Source: an uncultured virus (IMG/VR IMGVR_UViG_3300015607_002766)
Lineage: Duplodnaviria > Heunggongvirae > Uroviricota > Caudoviricetes
IMG/VR virus record: IMGVR_UViG_3300015607_002766
Length of the DNA: 64,000 nucleotides
Direction: 5' to 3' (one strand)
This document shows, in pieces, positions 8,602 to 61,690 of the stretch; position 1 is the stretch's first letter, and each line of letters starts with the position of its first letter. The position numbers were made by a program, and so were the translations under genes. A model generated the notes under the pieces. The model did not search any database. It was not told the DNA's origin and worked only from the letters and a program-made list of their open reading frames with translations.

Positions 8602-9386
8602 ATGATGAAGAATATTGGATATTGTTGTATTCCTATGGGATGCAATGTAGGTAAGCCTAAAAAAGAACATATAACTGTAAATAGAGGTATGGTTCGTAAA
8701 ACATTTGATACCAAAGGTTTGCCTTATGTATCTGAGTTAGTAATTGAAAATCTTAAAGACACACTTAAAGTTCTTGACTGGAACTTGAAGAATCATATCT
8801 ATGTCTATCGTTTGAGCTCAGACTCTTTTCCTTGGATGTCTGAATATGAGTTTTCTGATATGCCTAAGTTTCCGGCTATTCAAACTTATATGCGTTTGAT
8901 TGGTGAAAAAATCAAATCAAATGATATTCGTGTCAGCTATCACCCAGGTCCATTCAATGTTTTAGCAAGTGAGAATCCATCAGTTGTTGAAAAAACAATC
9001 AAAGAACTAAACAAACATGCAGAGTTGATGGATTTAATGGGCTTAGACCAAACTACATTTTATCCAATCAATATTCATATCAACACTACTCAACCAACAA
9101 GAGAAGAAGCGGCNNNNNNNNNNNNNNNNNNNNNNNNNNNNNNNNNNNNNNNNNNNNNNNNNNNNNNNNNNNNNNNNNNNNNNCAACTTGGAATACACGA
9201 GCAATGACTCATATGAGTTCGCCAAAAACATTAGAAGATAACTCTGGAAAACAAACTGCACATGCTGACTATATTTATGAAGAAATTAAAACGTTCGGTC
9301 TTGACTTTGATACAGAAATTGAAGCCAAAGCAAAAGACTTGGCAGTATTCAAATACAGAGAGCAATTTAAAGTTCTCAAAGGGTGA
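8602..9386 (+). CDS. uvsE: UV DNA damage endonuclease (spans N gap 9114-9183)
   Basis: IGYCCI, YRLSSDSFPW, SYHPGPFNVLAS, INIHI; C-terminal part HMSS...AHADY...EAKAKDLA in ORF 9204..9386. Confidence 0.9.
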
Positions 9387-10863: not shown

Positions 10864-11346
10864 TTAATTATTTATTTTTTGTTGTCTAGCAATTTCTTTT
10901 TCTTTTATTTCTTTTTCAAGCTCTTCTGGATGAAGTAGACCTCTGCCATACTTCTTAAATCTTTCTTGATATCTTAGTTTAACTCTATCTGAAATAGGTA
11001 TTGGTGACCCTTCTTCATCAAGTTTAACAAATACCATTTTAGTTGAGCAAACTATTTCTTGTCTACCTGTGTGAACATTATGCTTTCTGGCTTCAAGTTT
11101 TATAGTAACTGATGTGTTACCAAACTTATCAACTGATGCGTATATCTTAATAAGATTACCTACCTTAACCGGACTTTCAAAAACAACCTCTTCAATCTTT
11201 TTAGTTACCATTTTTGATGAGTCACATATTTGACAAGCATATGCCGCCGCTGATTCATCTAAAAATGAGAGCATGTGTCCACCAAATAATGAATCATTTA
11301 CTCCGATATCCAACACCATGCATATTCTAGTTGTTATTAATTCCAT
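10864..11346 (-). CDS. acyl-CoA thioesterase (hotdog fold)
   Basis: DIGVNDSLFGGHMLSFLDESAA, FESPVKVG, GNTSVT. Confidence 0.85.
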   Translation of the reverse strand: MELITTRICMVLDIGVNDSLFGGHMLSFLDESAAAYACQICDSSKMVTKKIEEVVFESPVKVGNLIKIYASVDKFGNTSVTIKLEARKHNVHTGRQEIVCSTKMVFVKLDEEGSPIPISDRVKLRYQERFKKYGRGLLHPEELEKEIKEKEIARQQKINN

Positions 11347-12097
11347 AATCTAATTCCTCCCATACCCACTTATATGTTTTTTTATTCACTATTTCTGAAA
11401 TACAACTTAATGATAAACCAAACATTTCTTTTAATTCAGAATAGCTCTTTTGTTTTGTTTTTGATAGATTGTATATCGCTAACACATCATACTTAGATAG
11501 TGATGCATTATGCTTGGATAGTTTATCTCTTTTTTCCTTTGAAATGGATGGTTCTCTACTCTCGGTATTATTACTTTTCTTCATATTATTTTTATGCTCT
11601 TCAGAAAATTCACGACCTATAAGCGAGTTTCTTATTTTCATTTTTGTTTCATCTGAATGATTTCTACCCATATTATGTGATATATTATTTTCATAAAAAA
11701 GTTTAAGACCATGACTTATACCTATTTTATTTTTCTCAGATAAAGGAATACCCTTTCTAATACCAACCCTACCTATACTTATATTCTTTTTCCATTCTGA
11801 AATTTCGTCATTGTTCATAAAAATTCTAATATCACCACCCTGTCCACCTTCTCTTATATTATAAAATTTTCTATCTTTATCTGCGTTAAAAAATGAAATC
11901 CAGTATTTTTCAGCTTTAATTAGTTCTTCCTTCGAAGAGCACACTTGTAATATCTCTTTTTTGAAATTTACCCGACCATATTTTTTTATGGCTTTTTTTA
12001 TATAAAGACCTGATCCTAAATAGTAAGGACAATTACTTGAATCCATACCTATATACTTTTTATTATTGATTAAATTAGTTACAAGATAAATAACCAT
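11327..12097 (-). mobile_element. GIY-YIG homing endonuclease with NUMOD-type repeats
   Basis: IYLVTNLINNKKYIG, YLGSG, KYGRVNFKKEIL, HSDETKMKI. Confidence 0.88.
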
Positions 12098-12663: not shown

Positions 12664-13338
12664 TTATTTTATATAATAAAAGAGATTAAGTTTAGATCCC
12701 CAGGAGGCATCAACCGTAAACTCTTCTTTTAGTATTTTACACTCTGGAATCTCAATAGCGGATATTAAGTGACAGCCTTTAGATAACTTATCATATACAC
12801 TTTTAATTAAAGTGTAATCAAAGCAAATATTATTCATGAATACTATAGTAGCAACAGATAGGTCAAAGTTATTTATGTCTTTTTCTATAAAAAAAATAGA
12901 ACTATCCGGTGATATTTTTTCTTTAATCCACTTTGAATAAGCTACTCTTTGAGGAACTATCTCAACTCCAACAAGTGTTTTGATATCTGACTTTATTGAC
13001 ATGTGTATTACTAACTTACCTGTACCACTTCCAATGTCAACAAAAACATCTTTATCTGTAATTCTTTTATATTTGTTAATCTTTTGTATTATAGTTTCAA
13101 CACCACTTCTTAATACTTCACCGTAAACATAATTCATATTATAAACACCTTTATAATCAAAGTGTTTATTTATAATCGTATCTCTTTTTGTAAAATTCTC
13201 TAACTGAAATTTTTGTTCAGGTGTGTAGTTATCCCAGACACCTAATAATTGACATATGGATTTTAGGCTAAATAAATTATTCTTATAAAGTAAATCAAGC
13301 TTGTGGTTTTCTGCTAGTAATTTAAGTTCCTTGTCCAT
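12664..13338 (-). CDS. DOT1-like class I SAM-dependent methyltransferase
   Basis: YVYGEV, DVFVDIGSGTGK, GVEI, ATIVFMNNICF match DOT1-family motifs. Confidence 0.75.
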   Translation of the reverse strand: MDKELKLLAENHKLDLLYKNNLFSLKSICQLLGVWDNYTPEQKFQLENFTKRDTIINKHFDYKGVYNMNYVYGEVLRSGVETIIQKINKYKRITDKDVFVDIGSGTGKLVIHMSIKSDIKTLVGVEIVPQRVAYSKWIKEKISPDSSIFFIEKDINNFDLSVATIVFMNNICFDYTLIKSVYDKLSKGCHLISAIEIPECKILKEEFTVDASWGSKLNLFYYIK

Positions 13339-13744
13339 ATTTAACAATCTCAATTTTAGCCTCTCTTAGAAAATCTAAACCTGAGGTATCTTTATAGTCT
13401 TCTAAATAAACTAATCTTTTTATTCCAGATTGTAGTATAAGTTTAGAACAATCTTTACAAGGAGAGTGTGTTTGATATAAAGTTGCACCATCACAAGAGT
13501 GTCCGTGCTTAGCACATTTCAAAATAGCATTTGCTTCACCATGTATAACATACCAGTTTGTATCACCATCTGAATTTTCACAAGAGTTATCAAAACCAGT
13601 TGGTGTGCCATTATAACCATCAGAAATAATCATACCATTCTTAACTATTAAAGCACCAACTTGCTTTCTGGTGCAGTGTGAAAGTTTGGCCCATTCTTTA
13701 GCCATATTCAAATAAGTTCTATCATATCTCTCTTTCTTCGTCAT
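13322..13744 (-). CDS. dCMP deaminase
   Basis: SHCTRKQVGA, GYNGTP, HGEANAI, SPCKDC. Confidence 0.93.
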   Translation of the reverse strand: MTKKERYDRTYLNMAKEWAKLSHCTRKQVGALIVKNGMIISDGYNGTPTGFDNSCENSDGDTNWYVIHGEANAILKCAKHGHSCDGATLYQTHSPCKDCSKLILQSGIKRLVYLEDYKDTSGLDFLREAKIEIVKYGQGT

Positions 13745-13904
13745 TGAATATTCTATTTATTTTACTCTTTCTAATATCGTTTTTATTTAAGTTAAACATC
13801 TTCATAAGATAATCTTTTGAAAAATACAAATTATCATAAGTATTGATTTGTTCAGTTAATACTTTTATTCTATCTTGATAAATTTCTATTTTTTCTTTAT
13901 ACAT
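13722..13904 (-). CDS. micro-protein: portal (gp20-like) C-terminal fragment plus tag RKSKINRIFN
   Basis: EKIEIYQDRIKVL...YFSKDYLMKMFNLNKNDI resembles the T4-type portal crown region. Confidence 0.55.
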   Translation of the reverse strand: MYKEKIEIYQDRIKVLTEQINTYDNLYFSKDYLMKMFNLNKNDIRKSKINRIFNDEEREI

Positions 13905-14055
13905 TGAATATGCTCATTATTTTAATTCTTCTAAGATATTTTCTAAAGGATTTACGATATACTTTTTCATCATAAATTCTACCATTACCTGGATATGTAT
14001 TATCAAATATTTGTAAAACACCGGTTAGTTTAATTATATCTTTACCTTTATACAT
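13897..14055 (-). CDS. micro-protein: prohead protease (gp21-like) N-terminal fragment plus tag RRIKIMSIFN
   Basis: KLTGVLQIFDNTYPGNGRIYDEKV resembles gp21 GxxQxxDxxNxNGRIY; ATG overlaps the upstream stop. Confidence 0.65.
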   Translation of the reverse strand: MYKGKDIIKLTGVLQIFDNTYPGNGRIYDEKVYRKSFRKYLRRIKIMSIFNV

Positions 14056-14269
14056 TGAATATCTTTTGAATTGAATTTTTTCTTCTTTTATTTCTATCTG
14101 GTTCAAATCCTAAATTTCTTAAAATATCTCTGTCAATTTCTCTTGCTATCTGATTAGATAACATAGCAGATAATTGATCAGCTATGTCAATTCCGTAAGC
14201 ACTGCTTAGTTTATCAGCCTCAGAGTTTGAATATATCTCTCCACCAGCCCCTGTCTTAATTTTTTTCAC
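14048..14269 (-). CDS. micro-protein: major capsid (gp23-like) fragment plus tag RKNSIQKIFN
   Basis: YGIDIADQLSAMLSNQIAREIDRDILRNL resembles gp23-type HxxDAEAELxxxLSxQIxxEIDREILxxL. Confidence 0.75.
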   Translation of the reverse strand: MKKIKTGAGGEIYSNSEADKLSSAYGIDIADQLSAMLSNQIAREIDRDILRNLGFEPDRNKRRKNSIQKIFNV

Positions 14270-14447
14270 CGAATATTCTAATTATTTTTTCTTTTCTATA
14301 AGAGGATCTTTGATCGCTATAAACATCTTGTATCATTTGAGCAACACTAGGTGATGTCACCATGTAATTACCATATCCTCTTTTAGAACTTTTATTTATA
14401 ACATTTGAGACTTTTAATAGCTTATCAATTAGATCTTTGTTATCCAT
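14256..14447 (-). CDS. micro-protein: second major capsid (gp23-like) fragment plus tag RKEKIIRIFG
   Basis: KVSNVINKSSKRGYGNYMVTSPSVAQMI resembles gp23-type IxxxTxRGxGNxxVxSPxVAxxL. Confidence 0.72.
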   Translation of the reverse strand: MDNKDLIDKLLKVSNVINKSSKRGYGNYMVTSPSVAQMIQDVYSDQRSSYRKEKIIRIFGEKN

Positions 14448-15211
14448 ATCTTATTTTTAATATTCCAATTTTCAGGCAGATGCTTACAATCATTATTGGT
14501 AATAAAGTGTTCTCTCCACATTTCAACAAATTTTTGAATATTATCTACTTGTGAAATAACCATCTCACCGTGAGTCTTTCTAAGAACAGTTGATTTTATC
14601 TCAGATATTTTTAATAGTCTTTGATATGTTAGTCTTTTGATTCCAAAATATGACTTAATTTCTTTCTTTAATGATACTATTCTATCTTTTGGAATATTAG
14701 AAGTATCACCAGCTAATGTACCTGCAATCTTTACATATTTAACTAAGTCACTACGAGTATCTACTTCTCCATTAACTGGTGCATTATATATCTGAGCTAT
14801 TTTATTTTTAAGTTCATCTGCCTTTCTCTCATATGAATCATGACAATCAGCACAAAGTGAAAGAACATCATGAAAATTATGAGATTTAAGTTCCATTGGA
14901 AAGTATCTTCTGTAACAATAAGGCACAACGTGGTGTCTGGTAAGATATTCTTCATTACCACAAGTAACACACTTATTACCCATTTCAGATAAACCAAATG
15001 ATTTATTATGATTTCCAAGTCCTTTTGGTTTGAAGTTTAACTTAACAGTTAGTGGTGATTCATTAACTATTTCTCCTAAGTTTCTATTTAAATACCAATT
15101 GGCTTTTTTTTCATCACATCTAAACATCAAAATCCCATCCGGAGATAAGACTTGACAGTTTCCATAAATCTTACGGTCTTTATCTACACCATATGATTTG
15201 TATATAGGCAT
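14429..15211 (-). CDS. HNH-like Zn-binding protein similar to the C-terminal domain of eukaryotic EXD2
   Basis: IYGNCQVLSPDG..FRCDEKKANWYL, CVTCG, RHHVVPYCYRRYFP..LKSHNFHDVLSLCADCH. Confidence 0.7.
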   Translation of the reverse strand: MPIYKSYGVDKDRKIYGNCQVLSPDGILMFRCDEKKANWYLNRNLGEIVNESPLTVKLNFKPKGLGNHNKSFGLSEMGNKCVTCGNEEYLTRHHVVPYCYRRYFPMELKSHNFHDVLSLCADCHDSYERKADELKNKIAQIYNAPVNGEVDTRSDLVKYVKIAGTLAGDTSNIPKDRIVSLKKEIKSYFGIKRLTYQRLLKISEIKSTVLRKTHGEMVISQVDNIQKFVEMWREHFITNNDCKHLPENWNIKNKIWITKI

Positions 15212-15213
15212 AT

Positions 15214-15768
15214 TTAATTTATTCTATCAATTTGATTTAATTCCAAATCAACCATTGTTTTTCTACCAAAAATCAAAACAGATATTTTAACTCTTTGTTC
15301 ATTGATTGCTTCTACTATACCAGTAAATGTTGTGAAAGGACCGTCAGTTATTTTAATCTCTTGACCAACAATATATCTACTTGTTAATTCTTGCTCAACT
15401 GCTACTTTTTCTTGAATACCAATCATTCTTTCAACTTCTTTATAAGATAGAACTTGAGGCTTTTTAGATCTATCTGAAAGTAAGCCAGTTGCGCCATCAC
15501 AACCTTTAACAAAGTGTGCTAATTCACCAATTGATTTTGTTTCAACAAAAATATAACCAGGATACATAACTTTTTCTCTGGTAAATTTCTTACCATTTTT
15601 TAGATGAAAACTTTTTTCAGTGGGTACTAAAACTCTACCGATAGCACCCATTAAGTCACCTTTTTCGGCTTCCTTTCTTAACTTTTCAGATACAGAACGT
15701 TCACGATTAGATTGAGCTCTAACGATATACCAATTCATTGTTGTTTCTTTTTCCATTGTTGTATTCAT
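15214..15768 (-). CDS. nusG: transcription antitermination factor NusG
   Basis: WYIVRAQSNRE, YPGYIFVE, KOW motif ITDGPF..FTGIVE, VLIFGRKT. Confidence 0.92.
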   Translation of the reverse strand: MNTTMEKETTMNWYIVRAQSNRERSVSEKLRKEAEKGDLMGAIGRVLVPTEKSFHLKNGKKFTREKVMYPGYIFVETKSIGELAHFVKGCDGATGLLSDRSKKPQVLSYKEVERMIGIQEKVAVEQELTSRYIVGQEIKITDGPFTTFTGIVEAINEQRVKISVLIFGRKTMVDLELNQIDRIN

Positions 15769-35488: not shown

Positions 35489-36085
35489 ATGGAAGAGAAT
35501 GAGAAAAAAGAGAAAAAGAGAAAGTACTATCTTGAGAATAAAGAAAAGTATAAAAAGTGGAGAAAAAAATGGCACGATAATCCAGATAATGAATCATATA
35601 AAAAAGAGAAACTCAAAGAGTGGAGAGAAAACAATGTAGAACACTTAAAAGAATATTCAAAGAAAAGGTATGATGAAAATAAAGAATCAATAAGCGAGAA
35701 TAAAAAAGTTTGGAGGCAAAAGAATAAAGATAAAATAAATGAATATAGAAGAAACTACCAAAAAGAAAGACTGAAAAATGATCCTTTGTTTAAGTTAAAA
35801 TCTTCTATTAGAAATAGGATAAATTTAAGCTTCAAAAGAGGTGGATTTACTAAGAAATCAAAAACAGGAGATATACTTGGTTGTAGTTTTGAAGAGTTTA
35901 GATTATATTTAGAACCTTTATTCACAGAAAACATGAATTGGGAGAATCAAGGAGAGTGGCATTTAGACCATATAATTCCAGTTAGTTTGGCTGAGACTGA
36001 AGAAGAGGTTATTAAACTTAATCACTATACGAATTTTCAACCATTATGGGCTGAAGATAACATAAGAAAAAGCAATAAAATATGA
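35489..36085 (+). mobile_element. HNH homing endonuclease
   Basis: K/E-rich helical repeats; ILGCS, MNWEN, WHLDHIIP, NHYTNFQPLWAEDN. Confidence 0.85.
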
Positions 36086-36351
36086 GTAAAGACAAAGCAC
36101 TTGTAAAAGAAACAGGTGAAATAAAAGAAGTAGAAAGTAAATATAGTGTTCAATATATCACTATGAGTTTTAATTTTGAGCTTGATGATAAACAAATGGA
36201 AGACATCAAAGAAATGACATTTGTTCATGATTCAGAGCCTCAAGAAGAAGGAGACTACTACACTCTTGATGATGGTAAAATATATCACCAAAAAGATGTT
36301 ATCGTTGGTACTGATGAAATTAGAGATCACAAATTGAAAAAAATTATATGA
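36082..36351 (+). CDS. hypothetical protein with C-terminal tag (IRDHKLKKII)
   Basis: 89-aa ORF. Confidence 0.7.
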   Translation: MSKDKALVKETGEIKEVESKYSVQYITMSFNFELDDKQMEDIKEMTFVHDSEPQEEGDYYTLDDGKIYHQKDVIVGTDEIRDHKLKKII

Positions 36352-36419
36352 GCACAAAATTATACAACGGAATAAAATTCAAATCAAACAATATTAAAGA
36401 GGTTTTAGACCAATTAATA

Positions 36420-37108
36420 TAGAATCAAAGTCCTCTAAAAAATACAAATATTATGATAATATATTTGAAATAATTGATAATGAAGAAAAAGCATATTGGC
36501 TTGGATTTTTATATGCTGATGGTTATGTAAGAGATAGAAGGTCAAGTAGTGAATTAAGATTAAAACTATCAATAAAGGATAAAGATCATCTTATAAGGTT
36601 CAAGACTTTCATATCACCGGATGATATACCTATTGTTAATGATTTGAGTGGTAATAGTAAGTGTGTTAAAGTATCTATCAATTCAAGAAAGATGGTTAGA
36701 GATTTAATCAAATTAGGTTGTACGAGCAGAAAATCAAAAACTATTAAGATGCCGAAAATACCAGATGATTTATTAAATCACTTTATAAGAGGATATTTTG
36801 ACGGTGATGGGTGGGTGTTAATTGATAAAAATAATAAACCATCTTTTGGTATAGTATCTGGGTCTAAAGAGATGTTGGAGTCGCTAAATAATGTAATAAC
36901 TAAAAATTCTATTATAAACAAAAACAAAGTATATGACTATACAACATATTATAACTTCTGCTATAAGTCATATACTGATATAATAAAAATATCAACTTTT
37001 TTATATAAACAAAGTAATATTTATTTAATAAGAAAGAAGGATAAGTTTGATGAAATATTAAACTTATATGAGAATCACAAAAACAAAAACTCAAAAAGAT
37101 GGAACTAA
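36420..37108 (+). mobile_element. LAGLIDADG-type homing endonuclease, 5' end lost or fused
   Basis: EEKAYWLGFLYADG upstream of the tracked ORF and HFIRGYFDGDG within it; preceded by an unrelated gene start MSTKLYNGIKF at 36348. Confidence 0.75.
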
Positions 37109-42519: not shown

Positions 42520-44058
42520 ATGATTTTAAAGAATATTCACGAAAAACTATTGGCTGGTATCCAAACGATGTTGATTGATACCAAAATTAACTTGCCTTAC
42601 TATGGTGAGTTTAACCTTCATATCAACTTTGTTGAGCAAGATTCTATTGGTACTTGCGCAGTCAATGTTACATCAAAAGGTATGAACTTCTTCTATTCAC
42701 CTAAGTTTTTAGAAGATATGTCTAACAAAGAAGTGAATTTCATCACTCTTCATGAAGACTTTCACTTACTTTTCAATCACCCTAAACGTACTATAACTGG
42801 TCAATACGACCACAAACTTTCGAATATCGCTCAAGACATGATTATCAATCACGTTATTTGGGAGGATATTCCACACGCTTTCGTTGAAATCCCTAAGAAC
42901 AAAGATGGTAAGAACATGGCTCTATTCGTTCCGAAAGAGTACCAAGGAAAACTTATCTTTGAAGAATTGTATGAGTGGTTGAAAGACGAGAAAGAAAAGT
43001 GGCAGAAAGAACGTAAGAAGCAAGACGGTCAAGGACAAAAACAAGACCAAAAAGGTCAAGGACAACAACCTGGTGATGGTCAAGGACAAGGTGAAAAACA
43101 AGAAGGTCAAGGAAAAGGACAACAACCTGGTGATGGTCAAGGCGAAGGTCAAGACCAACAAGACGGTCAAGGACAAGGCGAAAGTCAAGGTCAGGGACAA
43201 GGTCAAGGAAATGGTGGTGGTCACGGACACGGTGAAGGTGAGTCTTGCCCAGATTGTCAAGGTACTGGTAACGAAGGTGGTAAAGACTCTACCGGTAAGC
43301 CATCATATGGTCCTTACGGTAAGAACCCATCTAAAGATGGTGAATCATTAGACACTTGGTCTAAAGAGCAAATCTTCCAAGATATGGAAAACGGTAACGG
43401 TGAGTACATGGATAAACACATCGGTGATGATGTACCAGAAGATATGCGTGAAGCAATGGTAAAAGACGTTATGGAGCGTTTAGCGGCTCGTGGCTTGTCT
43501 GCGGGTAATGTTGAGACTACTCTTAACAAACTTCGTAAGAAGCGTAAAGATTACCTTCGTGAAATCAAGAGAGCTGTATCAAATATGATTTTCGGTACAG
43601 TTAAACAAAAGACTATTGTTAAACCTAACCGTCGTCAAATCTCTGGTTTGAAAGGTAACCGTAAAGTAAAAACCAAAATCAACTGTATCTTAGATACATC
43701 TGGTTCAATGGGTGGTACTTTTGAGCGTGTTCTTTCTTATATCTACCGTAATGATATTGAAATCAACTTGATTGAAGCTGATACCGAAGTTAAGTGGATT
43801 GAAAATATCAAGAACAAACGTAAGTTGGAAACAATGGTAATCAAAGGTCTTGGTGGTACAATCCTTCAACCTGCGATTGACTTAGTTGCTGACCAGTTCA
43901 ACGAGTACAATACTGTAGTCTTGACTGATGGTTACTGTGACTCACTTGACCTTTCTAAAATCAAAGGTAAAGTCTTGATGGTCTCAATTGGTGTGAAAGT
44001 ACCAATCTCAAGAAGTAACGGTAAAGTGAAGCAGATTATGGTTGAGAAAGAAAACTAA
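42520..44058 (+). CDS. VWA-like domain metallopeptidase (DUF2201-type), MoxR partner
   Basis: HEDFH zinc motif, NIAQDMIIN, Q/G-rich linker, DTSGSM MIDAS, GLGGT, LTDGY. Confidence 0.88.
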   Translation: MILKNIHEKLLAGIQTMLIDTKINLPYYGEFNLHINFVEQDSIGTCAVNVTSKGMNFFYSPKFLEDMSNKEVNFITLHEDFHLLFNHPKRTITGQYDHKLSNIAQDMIINHVIWEDIPHAFVEIPKNKDGKNMALFVPKEYQGKLIFEELYEWLKDEKEKWQKERKKQDGQGQKQDQKGQGQQPGDGQGQGEKQEGQGKGQQPGDGQGEGQDQQDGQGQGESQGQGQGQGNGGGHGHGEGESCPDCQGTGNEGGKDSTGKPSYGPYGKNPSKDGESLDTWSKEQIFQDMENGNGEYMDKHIGDDVPEDMREAMVKDVMERLAARGLSAGNVETTLNKLRKKRKDYLREIKRAVSNMIFGTVKQKTIVKPNRRQISGLKGNRKVKTKINCILDTSGSMGGTFERVLSYIYRNDIEINLIEADTEVKWIENIKNKRKLETMVIKGLGGTILQPAIDLVADQFNEYNTVVLTDGYCDSLDLSKIKGKVLMVSIGVKVPISRSNGKVKQIMVEKEN

Positions 44059-44083
44059 GAAAGTCCCGAAAGGGACTTTTTTA
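44059..44083 (+). terminator. rho-independent terminator
   Basis: aaagtccc-gaaa-gggacttttt. Confidence 0.85.
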
Positions 44084-44111
44084 TTTTAAATACTTTCATT
44101 ATCTTTGTAAA

Positions 44112-44396
44112 ATGACTGAAGTAGATATTTGGATTAAAGTATTTGATAAACTCCATTTTAAGTTTATAGAAGAATATTGCTCTCAAAGTAAAATAAACTT
44201 TTTGGTTTATCGTAATGATTATAGAGGTGACGGTAATTACACAGGTGACTATAGATTGTACTTTAATAGAGAAACTGATGAAGTTTTATCTTTGTTTATT
44301 AATAATAGCACTGAAAATCAAACTACTAAGCAGTTATTTGTAGAAGAAAACAAAAGCCTATTCAGAGAAGTGAAATTATTGTCCATCATGAACTAA
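44112..44396 (+). CDS. hypothetical protein with C-terminal tag (FREVKLLSIMN)
   Basis: ORF 4 nt after TATCTTTG. Confidence 0.7.
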   Translation: MTEVDIWIKVFDKLHFKFIEEYCSQSKINFLVYRNDYRGDGNYTGDYRLYFNRETDEVLSLFINNSTENQTTKQLFVEENKSLFREVKLLSIMN

Positions 44397-44444
44397 AAAT
44401 AATACTTTTAATTTTTAATATATAAATAAAATTTATGTAATAAA

Positions 44445-45266
44445 ATGAAGTATTGTTTAAGATGTGGTGAAGAACATGATGGTAGCTATGGTACTGGAAG
44501 ATATTGTTGTAAGAAATGTGCATTTACTAAAAATGAAAATCAGATTAGATCTGTTAGTGGTCCAAAATCAGAAGAAGTTAAAATTAAAATGAGAAAACCA
44601 AAGAAAGACTCTTCTAAAATGGGTAAGTATGATAAATCTGGATCAAATAATCCAAACTCAATATCTAAAAATGGCTATCTAAAAGATAGAACTGGAGATC
44701 AGTATAAAAATATATGTATATCAAATAAAAAAAATGGACTTGGTTGGAGTGAAGAGAATAGAATTAGACATTCTATTTTAATGCGAGGTGATTCAAATTG
44801 GATGAGGAATAAAAAACATAGCGACGAAACAAAGTTGAAAATATCAAATGCTAAGTTAGAACAGTATAAAAATGGGTTAGTCAATTTAAATAGAAACTTT
44901 ATGTCAGATGGTGAATATGCCATAGCTAATTTTTTGAAAGATAAGAAAATAGAGTTCAAACAACAATTTCAGATAGATAAAATTAGTTTTATCTATGACT
45001 TTTACTTACCTTTGTATAATATAATAATAGAATATAACGGTGATTATTGGCATGTTAATCCTGAAATATACAATGAAGATAAAGTCATAGTGGATGGAAA
45101 AACAGCTAATGAAATATGGGAAAAAGACAATCTTAAAAAGAAAATAGCTGAGGAGAATGGTTATAAATTCTATACAATATGGGAAAAGGACTACAATCCT
45201 GGTTATAAAAAAGTCTATAATAATAAATTAATAGTTGAAATTTTAAATGAAAATACTTTTTCTTGA
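44445..45266 (+). mobile_element. homing endonuclease with Zn finger, NUMOD3 and Vsr/DUF559-like nuclease domain
   Basis: CLRC...CCKKC, HSDETKLKIS, YDFYLP..IIIEYNGDYWH, IWEKD. Confidence 0.8.
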
Positions 45267-51232: not shown

Positions 51233-51808
51233 ATGAAATTAAAAAGATACAATCAATTTTTAGAATCTAAATCTGATATGTGGGACATTATTCCACAATC
51301 AGTTAAAGATTTACATACTTTATTCCAATCAGCTGGTAAGAAACTTTACTTAGTTGGTGGATCAGTTCGTGACTTCTTAACTGGCGATAAACCAAAAGAT
51401 TTTGACTTGGCAACTAACGCACTACCTGATGAGGTTTTAGAAATCATCGGTGATAAATTCAGAACTAACCTTCAAGGTAAAGCCTTTGGAGTTGTTGTAG
51501 TTTATACTAAAGAAGTTCCAGAAGGAATGGAAATTGCTACATTCAGATCCGATATTTATGATGATAAATTAGGAAAAACTAGAAACCCTGATGTTAAATT
51601 TACAACAATTGATCAAGATGTTTTGAGAAGAGATCTTCGAATTAATGGTCTTTTTTATGATTTGGATAAAAGAGAAATAGTCGATCTAGTTGGTGGTGTA
51701 GAAGATATAAAAAATAAAAAAATAAATATGATAGGTGATCCTGATTTAAGAATCAAAGAGGATCCTCTAAGAATTTTAAGAGCTATAAGGATGGCTTGTA
51801 GATTATAG
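51233..51808 (+). CDS. cca: tRNA nucleotidyltransferase (CCA-adding/poly(A) polymerase family), N-terminal half
   Basis: YLVGGSVRD, PKDFDLAT, EIATFRSD, DVLRRDLRING, EDPLRILRAIR. Confidence 0.9.
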   Translation: MKLKRYNQFLESKSDMWDIIPQSVKDLHTLFQSAGKKLYLVGGSVRDFLTGDKPKDFDLATNALPDEVLEIIGDKFRTNLQGKAFGVVVVYTKEVPEGMEIATFRSDIYDDKLGKTRNPDVKFTTIDQDVLRRDLRINGLFYDLDKREIVDLVGGVEDIKNKKINMIGDPDLRIKEDPLRILRAIRMACRL

Positions 51809-51858: not shown

Positions 51859-52902
51859 ATGAATAATTGGATAAAATTAAATACTAAAGAATGTGATATT
51901 TGTAGAGAAATATACTCATATGATTCTAGACAAAAAAATTCAAAGTATTGTTCACAAAGATGTAGATCTGTGTCCTCAAAACAAAAAAAAATAAATGGTG
52001 TTGAAAACATAGACTTTGTTATTTGTAAAATATGTGGTTTAAAATTTAAAGAAATAAATAATGATCATATGAAAATTCATAATATCACCTGTGATGATTA
52101 TGATAAAATTTACAAATCACAAAGAACATCTGAGAAAACAAGACATAATAAAAATACACTTTCGTCTATGATGAACGAAGAACTTTCAAAAAAGTTATCA
52201 AATTCACATACTATAGAAAATTATAAATCTAAATATGGTGAGGAAGAAGGTGTTTTAAGATTTAATTTAATGTTGGATAGAAAGAGATATAAAAATAGCA
52301 GACAATCATACAAGGATAAATATTCGGATGATTGGGAAAAGATTTATAGTGAAGTTCAGAATAAAAAGAAAATAACACTAGATAATTTAATTATTAAATA
52401 TGGACAAGAGGAGGGTAATAGAAGATTTGAAGAATTTAAACATAAAAGAAAAGTTAAAAATTTATTATCAACATACATTAATAAACATGGATATGAAATG
52501 GGTCTAGAAAAGTGGTTAGATAAAAATAATAAAATATCAATTTCAAATTCAAAAATAGAAATAGAAGATAGGGATAACTTTAAGTATTATATTTCCGAAG
52601 TAAATAAATATACAAGAGTTTCATTAGAAATGAATAATTTAGATAAATTAGAGTTAAGAGGAAAGGAAAATGGATATGACTTAGATCATATTGTATCAAA
52701 AGTCAATGGTTTTAAAAATAAAATACCAGCATATATAATTGGACATATATCTAATTTAAGAATAATAGAATCTTCGTATAATAGAAAAAAACAACATAAA
52801 TCAGAATTACCAATTGAATTTATTATTAATAGATTTGAGTCTGATGATTTATATAAAAAATTAATACTTGATATAATCAATTTAAAAAATGGCAATAATT
52901 GA
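51859..52902 (+). mobile_element. HNH-type homing endonuclease inserted in the cca gene
   Basis: Zn fingers, KYGEEEG repeats, YDLDHIVS...IGHISNL...N. Confidence 0.8.
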
Positions 52903-53473
52903 AAATAAGACCGCAGAATCCATAAAAAATAATGGTGAATTACTACTTACTATATCCAGTGAAAGAATATGGGATGAGTTTAAAAAGTCATGGGTTCAAT
53001 CGAAAGACTTTAGAGACTATCTTGGTTATTTAAAATCTTTTGAATTATATAAATATATATTTCCTGGTGCTAACATCAACACTAACTTAGTTGATTCAAA
53101 AGACTTTGTAGTTGTGATTGCTAACTTATTTAAGAATGAGAACACAACTGGTTTAGCTGATAGACTTGCTCAAGATTATAAGATTGAATTAGAGACTGCT
53201 ACTAAAGTAACTTTCTTAATCTCTTTATTATCTTTCAAAGTTGAAGATGTATTTGACATCTACAAGAAAAGACAACAATGTGCTATCACTGATGCTACTA
53301 TTTTAGAGTGGTTGAAAGTTGAAGGTATTGATACTGACACTTTAGTTAAGTTTGTTGAATACAGACCAAGTGTATCTGCTCAAGAACTTATGTCTCAAGG
53401 ATTCAAGGGTCGTGAGTTGGGTATTAAGATTAAAGAAATTGAAGTAGAAAAATTCAAAGAGACTCTTAAATAG
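52889..53473 (+). CDS. tRNA nucleotidyltransferase, C-terminal half
   Basis: ISSERIWDEFKK, YIFPG, ELMSQGFKGRELG match the body/tail of class II CCA enzymes. Confidence 0.85.
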   Translation: MAIIENKTAESIKNNGELLLTISSERIWDEFKKSWVQSKDFRDYLGYLKSFELYKYIFPGANINTNLVDSKDFVVVIANLFKNENTTGLADRLAQDYKIELETATKVTFLISLLSFKVEDVFDIYKKRQQCAITDATILEWLKVEGIDTDTLVKFVEYRPSVSAQELMSQGFKGRELGIKIKEIEVEKFKETLK

Positions 53474-54130
53474 AGTCTCTTTTAATATCTCTATTTATGT
53501 GGCTACAAAGCGGCTGTAGATTAGTATAATGATTTAATCTTATTACATCTTCTTCTGTAACAGCTGAAGATATTGGTATTATATGGTCAATATCCCAACC
53601 ATAATTTAATTGACCGTTATAGAGACCTCTATTTTCCCATGTCATCCAATCCTCAAATCTACTTTCTAAGTGTAATTTGAATTCCTCAAATGAACATCCT
53701 AATATTTCAAAGGTTTTTGATTTTCTACTAAAACCTCCTCTATTAAATGATTTTCTTATCATTCCTCTATAGTAGTGTGAAATTTTAAATATTATATCGT
53801 TTTTTAACCTTTTACTGAGGTAGAATCTTTGATACTCATTAACACTATCTTTGTTATTTTCACGATAGTTCTTCTTTTTAGTAGATAAATCTTCTTTGTT
53901 ATTCAGGTAATACTTAGACCTATATAATTTTAATTTCTCCTTGTTGTTCCCTCTGTATTTTTTACCATATTCTAACTTTTTTTCTTTATCTCTTTCTTTA
54001 TTTTTATAATAGTAAGCAAGACCATCAGATTTCAATTTTTCTCTATTTGAATCTTTATATCTTTTTTTACTATTTTTAAGATTTTCCGGATTATTTTCTT
54101 TATATTTAATATCATACTCTTTTCTACTAA
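53466..54130 (-). mobile_element. HNH homing endonuclease lacking its N-terminus
   Basis: ILGCS, MTWEN, WDIDHIIP, NHYTNLQPL; 5' end abuts the opposite-strand gene. Confidence 0.8.
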
Positions 54131-54132
54131 GT

Positions 54133-54771
54133 ATGAGAAACATTAAAGACGTAGTAGATTATTTAAACACTTTTGATAACTACAGAATATCCAGTGATAG
54201 TGATGATGGTAGAATTAACTCTCTTAGATCAGAAGATAGTTTAGTTAATTCCATTATGGAAAATCTCTCAAATCTACCAAATGTTAAAGTGGTAGGTAAG
54301 ACCGCAAACAGAGACGAGAACGACTTTTCATTAGTTATAAGTGATGATTCAGGCAACGAAATATTCTCAGAAGGTACTGATATAAAAATTGTAGATCCTC
54401 AAAACTTTACAAACACCGTAAGCTTTGTAAAGCTTTCAAAAATGATTAACCTTTCCGGTAATTCATACGAAACTGTTATCAACTCATACAATAAACAAGA
54501 AGATATTAAGTTAGTATCAGACTATTCAATACTATTTTTTGATAAGAGTAAAAATAAATTTGTACATGTTTATTTGTCAGAAATGACAACTACTGATGTT
54601 ACAACAAACCCTTCAAACTGCATTCAAACTAAAATACCAACATCTATTGTTAGTAGAACAGAAAAAGAAAAGTTTGATTTTATCCACTCTTTGTGGAAAA
54701 GCTATATTTACAAAAGAGTTGTTGCTCCTGCTAAGTTGTGTGAGTCAATAGACTTTTCTGATATAGTGTAA
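54133..54771 (+). CDS. putative restriction endonuclease (PD-(D/E)xK-like)
   Basis: DGRINS...NDF...DIK; directly upstream of an MTase. Confidence 0.5.
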   Translation: MRNIKDVVDYLNTFDNYRISSDSDDGRINSLRSEDSLVNSIMENLSNLPNVKVVGKTANRDENDFSLVISDDSGNEIFSEGTDIKIVDPQNFTNTVSFVKLSKMINLSGNSYETVINSYNKQEDIKLVSDYSILFFDKSKNKFVHVYLSEMTTTDVTTNPSNCIQTKIPTSIVSRTEKEKFDFIHSLWKSYIYKRVVAPAKLCESIDFSDIV

Positions 54772-56092: not shown

Positions 56093-56335
56093 ATGAAAAA
56101 AATTGATATTAAATCTATCGTTATTAATGAGGAAAACATCAATGGTCTACAAGACAAAAATGATGATTCATTTAATATTAAAAAACTTCTTGGTGTTAGT
56201 TTAACACAATCTCAGTCTATTAAGTTCGGTAACACCTTTCAAAATATTATTAAAGATATAGCTACTAGTGTTGGTGCTGAAGTTCTAACTCAACAATTTG
56301 CTGATTTCTTTTTTATGATATCTTTATTATTTTGA
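56093..56335 (+). pseudogene. truncated gene
   Basis: Runs into antisense sequence of the HNH fragment at ~56300. Confidence 0.55.
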
Positions 56336-56601
56336 TACTTTAATTTTCTTTGTTCTCTCATTCTATCTTCATTTTCAATTCTCCATCTTCTAGTATATTC
56401 ATTCATTTTTTCTTTATTTTTCTCTCTATAATATTTATTATACTCAATTTTAGTCATATTTAACTTATCATTCTCCCTTGATGTTTTTTTGATACAGCTT
56501 TTACAATTGTGTGAATATCCAGCTAAACCTTCACCTCTGTTAATCTTTTTATAGAATTCAGAGAACTCTTTTTCAATTTTACATTTATTACATACTTTCA
56601 T
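56300..56601 (-). pseudogene. N-terminal fragment of an HNH homing endonuclease
   Basis: MKVCNKCKIEKEFSEFYK...CKSC plus helical repeats; nuclease domain missing. Confidence 0.7.
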
Positions 56602-56689: not shown

Positions 56690-56884
56690 ATGAAAATAGA
56701 TGTTGACTTTATAGAATTTTATATAAAAAAGAAGTATAGCCAGAAATTAGAAGAATACTTTAGTGTGACTAAATCAGTATCGTCTGCTTGGCGTAACGAT
56801 CGTTTTCCTGAAAAAAGATTACATGAGTTTGTATATAAGGAAGGAACCTCAGATATAATTGAACTGCTTAAAAGAATTTACTAA
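56690..56884 (+). CDS. small HTH-like protein
   Basis: LEEYFSVTKSVSSAWR. Confidence 0.55.
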   Translation: MKIDVDFIEFYIKKKYSQKLEEYFSVTKSVSSAWRNDRFPEKRLHEFVYKEGTSDIIELLKRIY

Positions 56885-56976
56885 TGACTATAAGAGATTA
56901 TCAAATAAAAGTTATTAAACATTTTAGAAAAAGTCTAAGACATAGAAAAATATCAAAAATTTTTGGTTTATCTTAA
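56884..56976 (+). CDS. 30-aa micro-protein MTIRDYQIKVIKHFRKSLRHRKISKIFGLS with C-terminal tag
   Basis: ATG overlaps the upstream TAA; ends RHRKISKIFG. Confidence 0.5.
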   Translation: MTIRDYQIKVIKHFRKSLRHRKISKIFGLS

Positions 56977-58070: not shown

Positions 58071-58472
58071 ATGAAAAATTGTGTCATTTGTAATAATGAA
58101 ATCTCAGGTCAGAAAAAAATGTACTGTTCAAATAAATGTAAACAGAAGCATCACTATGACAGAGTAAAAGAGCAAACAAATACCTATCACTCACAGACAA
58201 TAAGGTCCTATAAAAGAAAACTTTATTTAATTGAAATGTTAGGTGGTTCTTGTAGAAATTGTGGTTATGATAAAAACTTATCAGCCTTAGAGTTTCATCA
58301 CAGAGATCCAAATGGAAAAGACTCTCAATTAGACATGAGAACACTTTCAAATAGATCTATGGAGTTCATAATGAAAGAAGTTGAAAAGTGTGACTTACTA
58401 TGTTCAAATTGTCATAGAGAAGTACATAACCCTGAAACTGAAGTTTTAAAATTAAAAGAAATAATAAAATAA
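58071..58472 (+). mobile_element. HNH endonuclease adjacent to the tRNA
   Basis: CVIC...CSNKC, CRNCGY, ALEFHHRDP, CSNCHREVH. Confidence 0.85.
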
Positions 58473-60866: not shown

Positions 60867-60928
60867 TTCCATCAGGAGCAAAGGAAAGAGCATTAATTTA
60901 ATATATAAGAAAATTAATGCTCTTTTTT

Positions 60929-61690
60929 ATGATATATTATATTTTATATGAAACAACAAACCTAATAAATGGTAAAAAATATAGAGGTATTCACAAAACG
61001 GATAAATTGGAAGATGGTTATTTAGGTAGCGGATATGCTTTAATAGAATCTATTGAGAAATATGGCAAAGAAAACTTTCAAAGAGAGATATTAGAATTTT
61101 GCGATTCTTATGATGAACTAATTGAATTAGAAAAAATTTATGTTGATAAAGAATGGGTTAAAGATAGATCAAATTACAATTTAAAAACTGGTGGACAAAG
61201 TTCTGGTATATTATCGGAAGAATCTAAAAGAAAAATATCAGATACTTTGAAAGAAAAATATCAAAATGGTGAATTAGACAGAAGAGAAGGTATAATACCT
61301 TATGAGACAACAGATGAAATAAAAGAAAAGATATCAAAGACATTAAAAGAGAAATATAAAAGTAAAGAACATCATTTAAAGGGATGCATCCCATGGAATA
61401 AAGGTAAAAAAGGTTCACAAGTAGCATGGAACAAGGGTAAAAAAATGGGTAATATGTCTGATGAAGAAAAGAAAAAAAGATCGAACACATTGAAAGAAAG
61501 GTATAAAAATGAAGAACATCATGCTAAAGGTAAATCACCTTGGAATAAAGGTAAAAAAGGAGTTCAAGTACCTTGGAATAAAGGAAAAGAAATGAAAAAA
61601 GATAAATGTAAATACTGTGATAAAGAAATGGATATTTTAAATCTGAATAAATATCACAATGAAAATTGTAAGTTAAAAATACTTATCTAA
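60929..61690 (+). mobile_element. GIY-YIG homing endonuclease with PWNKGKKG repeats
   Basis: LYETTNLINGKKYRGIH, DGYLGSG, KYGKENFQREIL; four (P/A)WNKGK repeats. Confidence 0.88.

Follow-up and report, generated by a model that had tools for sequence, protein, structure and literature searches.

Why would a phage carry a row of overlapping genes of only 52-73 amino acids (aa), each joining a short head-protein-like piece to a common C-terminal tail? The question is raised by a 64,000-nucleotide (nt) stretch of DNA from an uncultured virus (IMG/VR record IMGVR_UViG_3300015607_002766), called the window below, in which four such open reading frames (ORFs) overlap on the minus strand between a gene for an HNH-like nuclease and a gene for deoxycytidine monophosphate (dCMP) deaminase. 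The closest DNA matches of the window were two genomes of uncultured megaphages, LR745206.1 (635 kb) and LR756502.1 (642 kb), and the window phage is an environmental relative of the Lak megaphages. The four ORFs are real genes under selection, and each consists of a body of ~25-40 residues and a C-terminal tail of ~12 residues, R-K-x-K-I-x-x-I-F. We propose, with a probability of roughly one in three, that the tail serves as a portable docking peptide, of the kind that binds sliding clamps, and that the array is a set of bait-plus-dock mini-genes built by recombination beside a homing-endonuclease-like gene.

Layout, parent proteins and conservation of the four mini-genes

In the direction of transcription, the array comprised ORF4 (14256..14447, 63 aa, ATG start) with a capsid A-domain segment, ORF3 (14048..14269, 73 aa, GTG start) with a capsid helix segment, ORF2 (13897..14055, 52 aa from its ATG) with a candidate N-terminal segment of the prohead protease, and ORF1 (13722..13904, 60 aa) with a probable C-terminal segment of the portal protein, each followed by the tail. 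The longest form of ORF2 begins at a TTG at 14106, but its relatives align to the ATG instead. Overlaps amounted to 19 nt between the HNH-like gene and ORF4, 14 nt between ORF4 and ORF3, 8 nt at both the ORF3/ORF2 and the ORF2/ORF1 junction, and 23 nt between ORF1 and the dCMP deaminase gene. The four successively overlapping, coupled ORFs that a preliminary description had read from this DNA were found in place, and so were the reuse of one junction sequence and the shared near-terminal motif to which it had drawn attention.

All four C-termini carry R-[KR]-x-[KS]-I-x-x-I-F. Over the six reading frames of the window, this strict motif had 4 matches, all of them in the array and 2-7 residues before the stop. 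A looser regular expression for the tail matched near an ORF end four times in the window; reversed DNA gave one such match, and 20 triplet shuffles gave 0.05 on average (maximum 1). The tail is encoded by a 44-nt direct repeat in four copies of 66-77% identity on the minus strand, and the end of every copy is the next start codon. Copy 1 (14267..14310; family D1) ends at the GTG of ORF3, copy 2 (14053..14096) at the ATG of ORF2, copy 3 (13902..13945) at the ATG of ORF1 and copy 4 (13742..13785) at the ATG of the dCMP deaminase gene. The 17-nt sequence ATATTCAATGTATAAAG occurs at two junctions, 14046-14062 (included with copy 2) and 13895-13911 (included with copy 3).

The exact 10-mer ATATTCAATG was found three times in the 64 kb, always within the array, which ruled out a genome-wide promoter or ribosome-site motif; with up to one mismatch, its 19 occurrences against 17 expected were unremarkable. 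A scan of promoters and terminators was at chance (25 versus 23.8 expected). A CRISPR-like or RNA element was likewise ruled out, since the units encode proteins, and the one Rfam match, to a small RNA (E 0.64), was not credible.

The two capsid-like bodies were recognised from single sequences. ORF3 matched positions 161-196 of the Pfam profile PF07068 (Gp23) with E 6.8e-6 and 26.2 bits, above the cut-off of 24.4, and ORF4 matched positions 222-260 with E 6.8e-5 and 22.9 bits, below that cut-off; both also matched PHROG 138. These are two separate segments of a gp23-type capsid protein in swapped order, as had been described, the upstream ORF4 holding the later segment and ORF3 the earlier one. 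Within the HK97-type fold domain of Gp23 (376 profile positions), only these two segments were covered, and no longer protein closely like ORF3 was found among 95 candidates, none of which scored. ORF3 and ORF4 are therefore fragments and not capsid proteins, and a recent copy of a full-length capsid gene was ruled out by the lack of a longer relative. In tblastn searches, ORF3 matched only two small ORFs of related megaphages and ORF4 matched nothing in the phage collection. The linker and tail of ORF3 resembled the C-terminal domain of Sas10 (Pfam PF09368, E 0.024; PDB 7suk_NB, E 0.14), which is probably a chance match of basic segments.

Family profiles were built from the collected relatives and compared with gp20-gp24, five head proteins of T4, so that the E-values refer to a database of five sequences and are individually modest. 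The ORF4 profile matched gp23 363-389 (E 6.2e-6), the ORF3 profile gp24 190-220 (E 2.6e-5) and gp23 270-307 (E 3.3e-4), the ORF2 profile (family A3) gp21 53-73 (E 5.5e-5) and the ORF1 profile (family A5) gp20 479-498 (E 0.0055). For all four profiles, the top match was the parent named in the preliminary description. The gp21 origin of 13897-14055 and the gp20 origin of 13722-13904 showed at this family level; the single sequences of ORF2 and ORF1 matched no protease or portal family in Pfam or PHROG. One of the five members of the ORF2 family matched Peptidase_S77 (E 0.032), and the ORF of LR745206.1 that is syntenic with ORF1 matched positions 385-425 of Pfam Portal_T4 (E 0.048). Overall, the named parent is strongly supported for both capsid pieces, moderately for the portal piece (ORF1) and weakly to moderately for the protease piece (ORF2).

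Compared with the head proteins of the lineage itself, the ORF1 family aligned to residues 473-497 of the 577-residue portal (hhalign P 3.9e-4) and the ORF2 family to residues 23-53 of the protease (hhalign P 0.0013). The pieces scored about equally on the lineage's head proteins and on those of T4, being as distant from the one as from the other; the ORF2 profile reached 11.0 bits on T4 gp21 versus 3.4 on the lineage's protease. The pieces are therefore old, diverged copies. Their bodies align to segments of T4 gp23/gp24 (PF07068), gp21 (PF03420) and gp20 (PF07230) but differ from these proteins in retaining only 20-40 parent residues, with no fold-sized domain, and in having their own start and stop and an added tail. 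On the plus strand, the pieces follow the order of the head operon (portal, protease, capsid 270-307, capsid 363-389), and the mini-genes are transcribed in the order opposite to that of the T4 head operon; we gave this match no weight, as 2 in 24 orders would show it by chance and related arrays are not independent.

The ratio of nonsynonymous to synonymous substitution rates (dN/dS, Nei-Gojobori) was 0.37 for ORF4 (103 pairs), 0.33 for ORF3 (21 pairs), 0.57 for ORF2 (only 6 pairs) and 0.38 for ORF1 (10 pairs), compared with 0.16 for the HNH-like gene (10 sequences), 0.03 for the deaminase gene and 0.17 for the NusG-like gene upstream. The constraint on the mini-genes is real and weaker than that on their neighbours. 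The ORF3 family comprised 286 clusters at E <= 0.01 (287 candidates), with lengths of 70-79 aa among the 120 matches listed, and the tail was its most conserved stretch. In seven DNA copies of this family, the tail codons varied synonymously (AGA/CGT; TCA/TCT/AGT), which indicates that selection acts on the peptide and not on the DNA.

A decaying contiguous head operon, which the preliminary description had already doubted, was rejected because the ORFs are open in relatives and their dN/dS lies below 1 (0.33-0.57). In addition, each ORF has its own start and stop, pieces are dispersed singly in relatives, and an intact ORF4-type gene follows the HNH-like gene in 17 of the 22 loci compared below. 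Near-identical DNA to the window was present in wastewater runs of two studies, and contigs from estuary runs of a third study matched portions of the array with 0-1 differences; the array is therefore no assembly artefact of a single sample.

Exchange of units and a wider class of tagged ORFs

The array is headed by the HNH-like nuclease gene (14429..15211, minus strand, 260 aa), preceded by the NusG-like gene as a conserved upstream flank (15214..15768, minus strand; Pfam NusG E 8.7e-17, and KOW), and closed by the conserved dCMP deaminase gene (13322..13744, minus strand; phrog_174 E 7.4e-57). The HNH-like protein matched Pfam HNH/HNH_2 weakly (E 0.006-0.007; 16.9 bits, below the cut-off of 21.4) and PHROG HNH families with E 1.5e-4 and weaker, and it is putatively homing-endonuclease-like.

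Twenty-two loci with this gene were compared (the window, LR756502.1, four from IMG/VR and 16 from metagenomes), three further truncated loci being left out. An ORF4-type gene came directly after the HNH-like gene in 17 of the 22, after one intervening ORF in one, and was absent from four. The arrays behind the HNH-like gene varied and included ORF4-deaminase, ORF4-ORF1-deaminase, ORF4-ORF2-ORF1-deaminase and ORF2-deaminase. ORF3 occupied the array locus in the window only (1/22); its homologues in other relatives stood singly after glycosyltransferase genes, and the gene following them was usually convergent, so that there was no downstream gene to couple. LR745206.1 had the same NusG-like and deaminase flanks without the HNH-like gene and only an ORF1-type gene before the deaminase gene. 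The joints themselves were sharp. One related contig joined 14271 straight to 13745 within a shared ATATTC, and another omitted 13895-14045 (joint 13894->14046), with the same 17 letters on both sides. Whole units are thus gained and lost at the junction of tail and start codon, beside an HNH-like gene that is itself a presence/absence element. The tail-coding repeat as the exchange site of units beside a homing-endonuclease-like gene goes beyond the preliminary description.

This arrangement resembles the free-standing homing endonuclease cassettes of T4-type phages, and their "genes in pieces", in that the HNH-like gene occurs in some genomes and is missing from others between neighbours that are conserved, with variable flanks and sharp boundaries. 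Nuclease genes at the boundaries of genetic exchange are reported in an earlier study (PMC10448857). The difference lies in the passengers, which are conserved tail-tagged mini-genes copied from distant head genes and not split halves of a local gene. Whatever the function of the mini-proteins, the locus shows clearly how new genes can be made: with a short coding repeat that runs up to a start codon, pieces of core genes can be taken up, expressed and reshuffled as units.

The same observations could be read as selfish or near-neutral by-products, in which recombination at repeats near homing endonuclease genes makes chimeras of fragment and tail that are harmless and kept open for translational coupling. 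In favour of this reading, endonuclease genes crowd the window, and the HNH-like gene next to the array is present in some relatives and missing from others. Units are gained and lost at the repeat, and truncated ORF2 remnants in two related loci (L078 and L081) indicate that they also decay and turn over. Split genes occur elsewhere in the lineage, namely tRNA nucleotidyltransferase in the window and DNA polymerase in relatives, and the dN/dS of the mini-genes is 2-3 times that of their neighbours. Yet all four families have a dN/dS clearly below 1, and ORF3 homologues are kept in 286 clusters, where coupling to a downstream gene is usually impossible. The tail residues are conserved despite synonymous switches, and the diverged bodies are of ancient origin and do not look like recent debris. 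We consider such by-products unlikely.

The array genes belong to a genome-wide class, with at least 15 tail-tagged mini-ORFs in LR745206.1. In this genome, the tail expression matched near an ORF end 15 times, compared with none in reversed DNA and a mean of 0.35 (maximum 2) in shuffles. A hidden Markov model (HMM) of the tail matched 25 ORFs at >=7 bits, of which all but one were 30-89 aa long, and the tail lay mostly 0-7 residues before the C-terminus. The tagged ORFs included capsid pieces (Pfam positions 132-163, 164-194 and 308-356) and a tail-fibre-like piece. Parents within the same genome were recovered as well: capsid 494-537 (E 1.8e-5) and 339-370 (E 0.021), the repeats of a protease-scaffold protein (E 4.8e-41), protease 148-160 (E 0.027) and DNA polymerase (E 0.0047), with a family-B polymerase motif repeated in a 79-aa tagged ORF (83154-83393). 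Most of the remaining tagged ORFs of LR745206.1 had no detectable parent, in a search that favours conserved motifs, and larger proteins with looser tails had no informative PHROG annotation. No published description of such mini-gene sets was found in the abstracts and passages searched. For annotation, these mini-ORFs give sub-threshold "capsid" or "portal" matches far from the head genes and are easily taken for pseudogenes.

Two related observations were made alongside this census. The family-B DNA polymerase of LR745206.1 is split into parts ~100 kb apart (130568-131992 and 232803-234344). A 90-aa ORF (L018:3854-4126) of a huge phage that is more distantly related resembled a C-terminal capsid segment, as judged by eye against a piece from another locus (L005), and its tail motif was internal.

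The range of pieces bears on two further readings. According to the preliminary description, the mini-proteins could be immune decoys, mimicking the sensor-recognised parts of capsid, portal and protease and so blunting host sensors such as Avs, CapRel, Lit and CBASS. Capsid, portal and protease are phage protein classes sensed by known defence systems, the pieces are signature segments detectable by profiles, and the variety of pieces in one genome would be in keeping with a wide range of decoys. Nothing speaks directly for a decoy function, however. Neither a piece with a catalytic motif of DNA polymerase nor repeats of the scaffold are known to trigger defence, pieces of 25-40 residues are unable to display a fold, and the shared tail has no role. 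The capsid pieces (gp23 270-307 and 363-389) also lie outside what we take to be the Gol region. In the Gol/Lit, CapRel and Avs systems, host proteins bind head proteins or short peptides of the capsid, and the mini-proteins resemble these ligands in their derivation from head proteins; the difference is that those ligands are parts of full-length virion proteins and trigger defence. No phage-encoded set of stand-alone fragments was described in the abstracts and passages searched. On balance, a decoy function seems quite unlikely.

Dominant-negative poisons or modulators of head assembly, serving the phage itself as a control of timing or directed at T4-type phages in the same cell, also appear distinctly improbable. 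The capsid helix, the portal C-terminal segment and the scaffold repeats do come from oligomerising proteins, and generic T4-type targets are conceivable for pieces about as close to T4 as to lineage proteins. Against this, the piece with a polymerase motif is out of keeping with such a role, the array has genes of nucleotide metabolism and transcription around it and not head genes, and the common tail is left without explanation.

The tail as a candidate sliding-clamp epitope

The resemblance of the tail to a clamp-binding epitope is a new point beyond the preliminary description. The C-terminal tails of gp43 and gp55 of T4 and RB69, read from the genomes, all fit [KS]-[ILVM]-x-x-[ILM]-[FY], and so do all four tails of the window, at 2-7 residues from the end. 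The RB69 gp43 tail fits the whole R-[KR]-x-[KS]-I-x-x-I-F-[NG] motif position by position. As background, among 480 large ORFs in LR745206.1, only 7 showed the core pattern within their last 14 residues. In the passages of PMC2988020 consulted, the tails of gp43, gp55 and gp33 are described as freely interchangeable sliding-clamp-binding epitopes, an RB69 peptide of 11 residues is said to have been crystallised on the clamp, the T4 epitope is called "hydrophobic and acidic", and gp33, of 112 aa, is a small T4 protein bearing the epitope.

Components of the clamp machinery were also predicted in the lineage. A homologue of gp44 was identified in relatives (phmmer E 4.8e-18). No clamp was matched by the Pfam profiles PF09116, PF02916 and PF00712, nor by PHROG families at E 1e-6 in 150 of the 157 ORFs of 185-270 aa, a list that did not contain a 262-aa clamp candidate. 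A first fold from a 4-row alignment had a predicted local distance difference test (pLDDT) score of 43.5; for a 260-aa protein of the lineage, the model from a 103-row alignment reached 96.3. Its top Foldseek matches were PCNA and T4 gp45 (6drt_A, 3u61_F), with E ~1e-10 and template modelling (TM) scores of 0.64-0.74; a profile search of PDB sequences gave nothing. On the strength of the model, the lineage is predicted to encode a clamp of gp45/PCNA fold (L068:1501-2280). The window itself contains neither this gene nor that of the clamp loader. A complex prediction of three clamp chains with residues 38-73 of ORF3 scored 0.19, compared with a mark of 0.32, which speaks neither for nor against binding. 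In two megaphage genomes, the C-terminal part of the polymerase ends in ...RLSVVMDIFGG, a related tail.

We return to the docking proposal, in which the tail would dock the mini-proteins, most likely on the phage's own gp45/PCNA-type sliding clamp. We infer this because the tail shares its residue pattern and near-C-terminal position with the T4/RB69 gp43 and gp55 epitopes, and because the lineage polymerase has a related tail and the lineage encodes a clamp and clamp loader. Each mini-protein would then be a bait plus a dock, the head-protein segment acting as bait and the tail as dock. Mini-proteins might occupy clamp sites and so compete with, or regulate, replication and late transcription; alternatively, they might hold binders of the head-protein segment at DNA-loaded clamps. 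The repeat of ~44 nt, ending at the next start codon, is the place where whole units are gained and lost. The tail resembles the T4/RB69 clamp epitopes, and motifs of the PCNA-interacting protein (PIP) type generally, as a short, portable, near-C-terminal peptide with the same S/K-I/L-x-x-I/L/M-F/Y spacing; it differs in being found on at least 15 mini-proteins with head and replication protein bodies.

Several points weigh against this proposal. The window-type tail is hydrophobic and basic (R/K-rich), whereas the T4 epitope is acidic, and a motif this short may match by convergence. The polymerase tail fits only with a shift of one residue and fell below the listing threshold of the tag HMM, and the gp55 homologue of the lineage (121 aa; phrog_234 positions 10-123 of 181) is without the tail. 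There is no apparent reason for clamp-docked proteins to carry pieces of head proteins, and the identity of the ORF3 and ORF4 bodies to the lineage's capsid protein is low (24-31%). Both the genome-wide census and the clamp were taken from relatives and not from the window phage's own genome, and the truncated ORF2 remnants mentioned above belong on this side as well.

A shared tail also invites the analogy of an address tag for capsid cargo, in which it would target the mini-proteins to the prohead or, as a degron, to a protease. T4 loads its internal proteins (IPI-III, Alt) by way of one short peptide shared by many small proteins, and the two ClpP-like protease genes of the related genome might suit a degron. 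The T4 signal, however, is N-terminal and is removed by gp21, whereas the tag of the mini-genes is C-terminal and basic (4/4 ORFs of the window) and not an N-terminal targeting sequence with a protease site; no link between tail and head genes was found. Tagged cargo is accordingly a very improbable reading.

If the tail does dock on the clamp, the list of clamp clients would grow from polymerase and late-transcription factors to mini-proteins with capsid, portal, protease, scaffold and polymerase segments, and a new layer of control or conflict would be added in the largest known phages. One extension of the docking proposal, which we offer as a long shot, is that a library of bait-plus-dock mini-proteins turns the clamps loaded on the 0.6-Mb genome during its replication into a platform for recruiting or titrating components of head assembly and packaging, physically coupling replication and late transcription to head assembly, with new baits arising by recombination at the repeat.

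The end of the gp55 homologue was overlapped, in another frame, by a tail-tagged ORF with a piece of prohead protease (L028:9151-9649 of LR745206.1, and two further loci, L062 and L063), and this tagged ORF was followed by a hairpin and a T run in three genomes. The idea that the tail is the missing C-terminus of a shortened gp55 homologue was ruled out, as the overlapping tagged ORF is itself a protease piece.

Genomic surroundings

The G+C content of the window was 27-37%. Its genes included T4-type topoisomerase II subunits and several DNA methyltransferases in addition to the NusG-like and dCMP deaminase genes. About 12 homing-endonuclease-like genes (HNH, endonuclease VII-like, phrog_314) were present in the 64 kb, including those at 8602-9207, 11327-12097, 35489-37108, 42520-45266, 53466-54771, 56290-56601, 58071-58472 and 60917-61690. 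Among these endonuclease genes, a 30-aa ORF on the plus strand (56884..56976) had a tail-like C-terminus (tag HMM 13.1 bits, E 0.0018).

The four ORFs and the HNH-like gene had no PADLOC match. Downstream of the deaminase gene, a DOT1-like methyltransferase gene (12664-13353) matched Pfam PF08123 (E 4.9e-16) and PADLOC mad2 (E 1.1e-10). In LR745206.1, two genes for ClpP/S49-like proteases (L022:15119-15859 and L025:3556-4221; phrog_94 E ~1e-37) lay off the head-gene region. Finally, the transfer RNA (tRNA) nucleotidyltransferase of the window was split into 51233-51808 and 52889-53473 (phrog_2244 positions 2-148 and 153-307), and between the two pieces lay an ORF of 347 aa (51859-52902) with weak matches to endonuclease families, an arrangement that looks like a gene in pieces.

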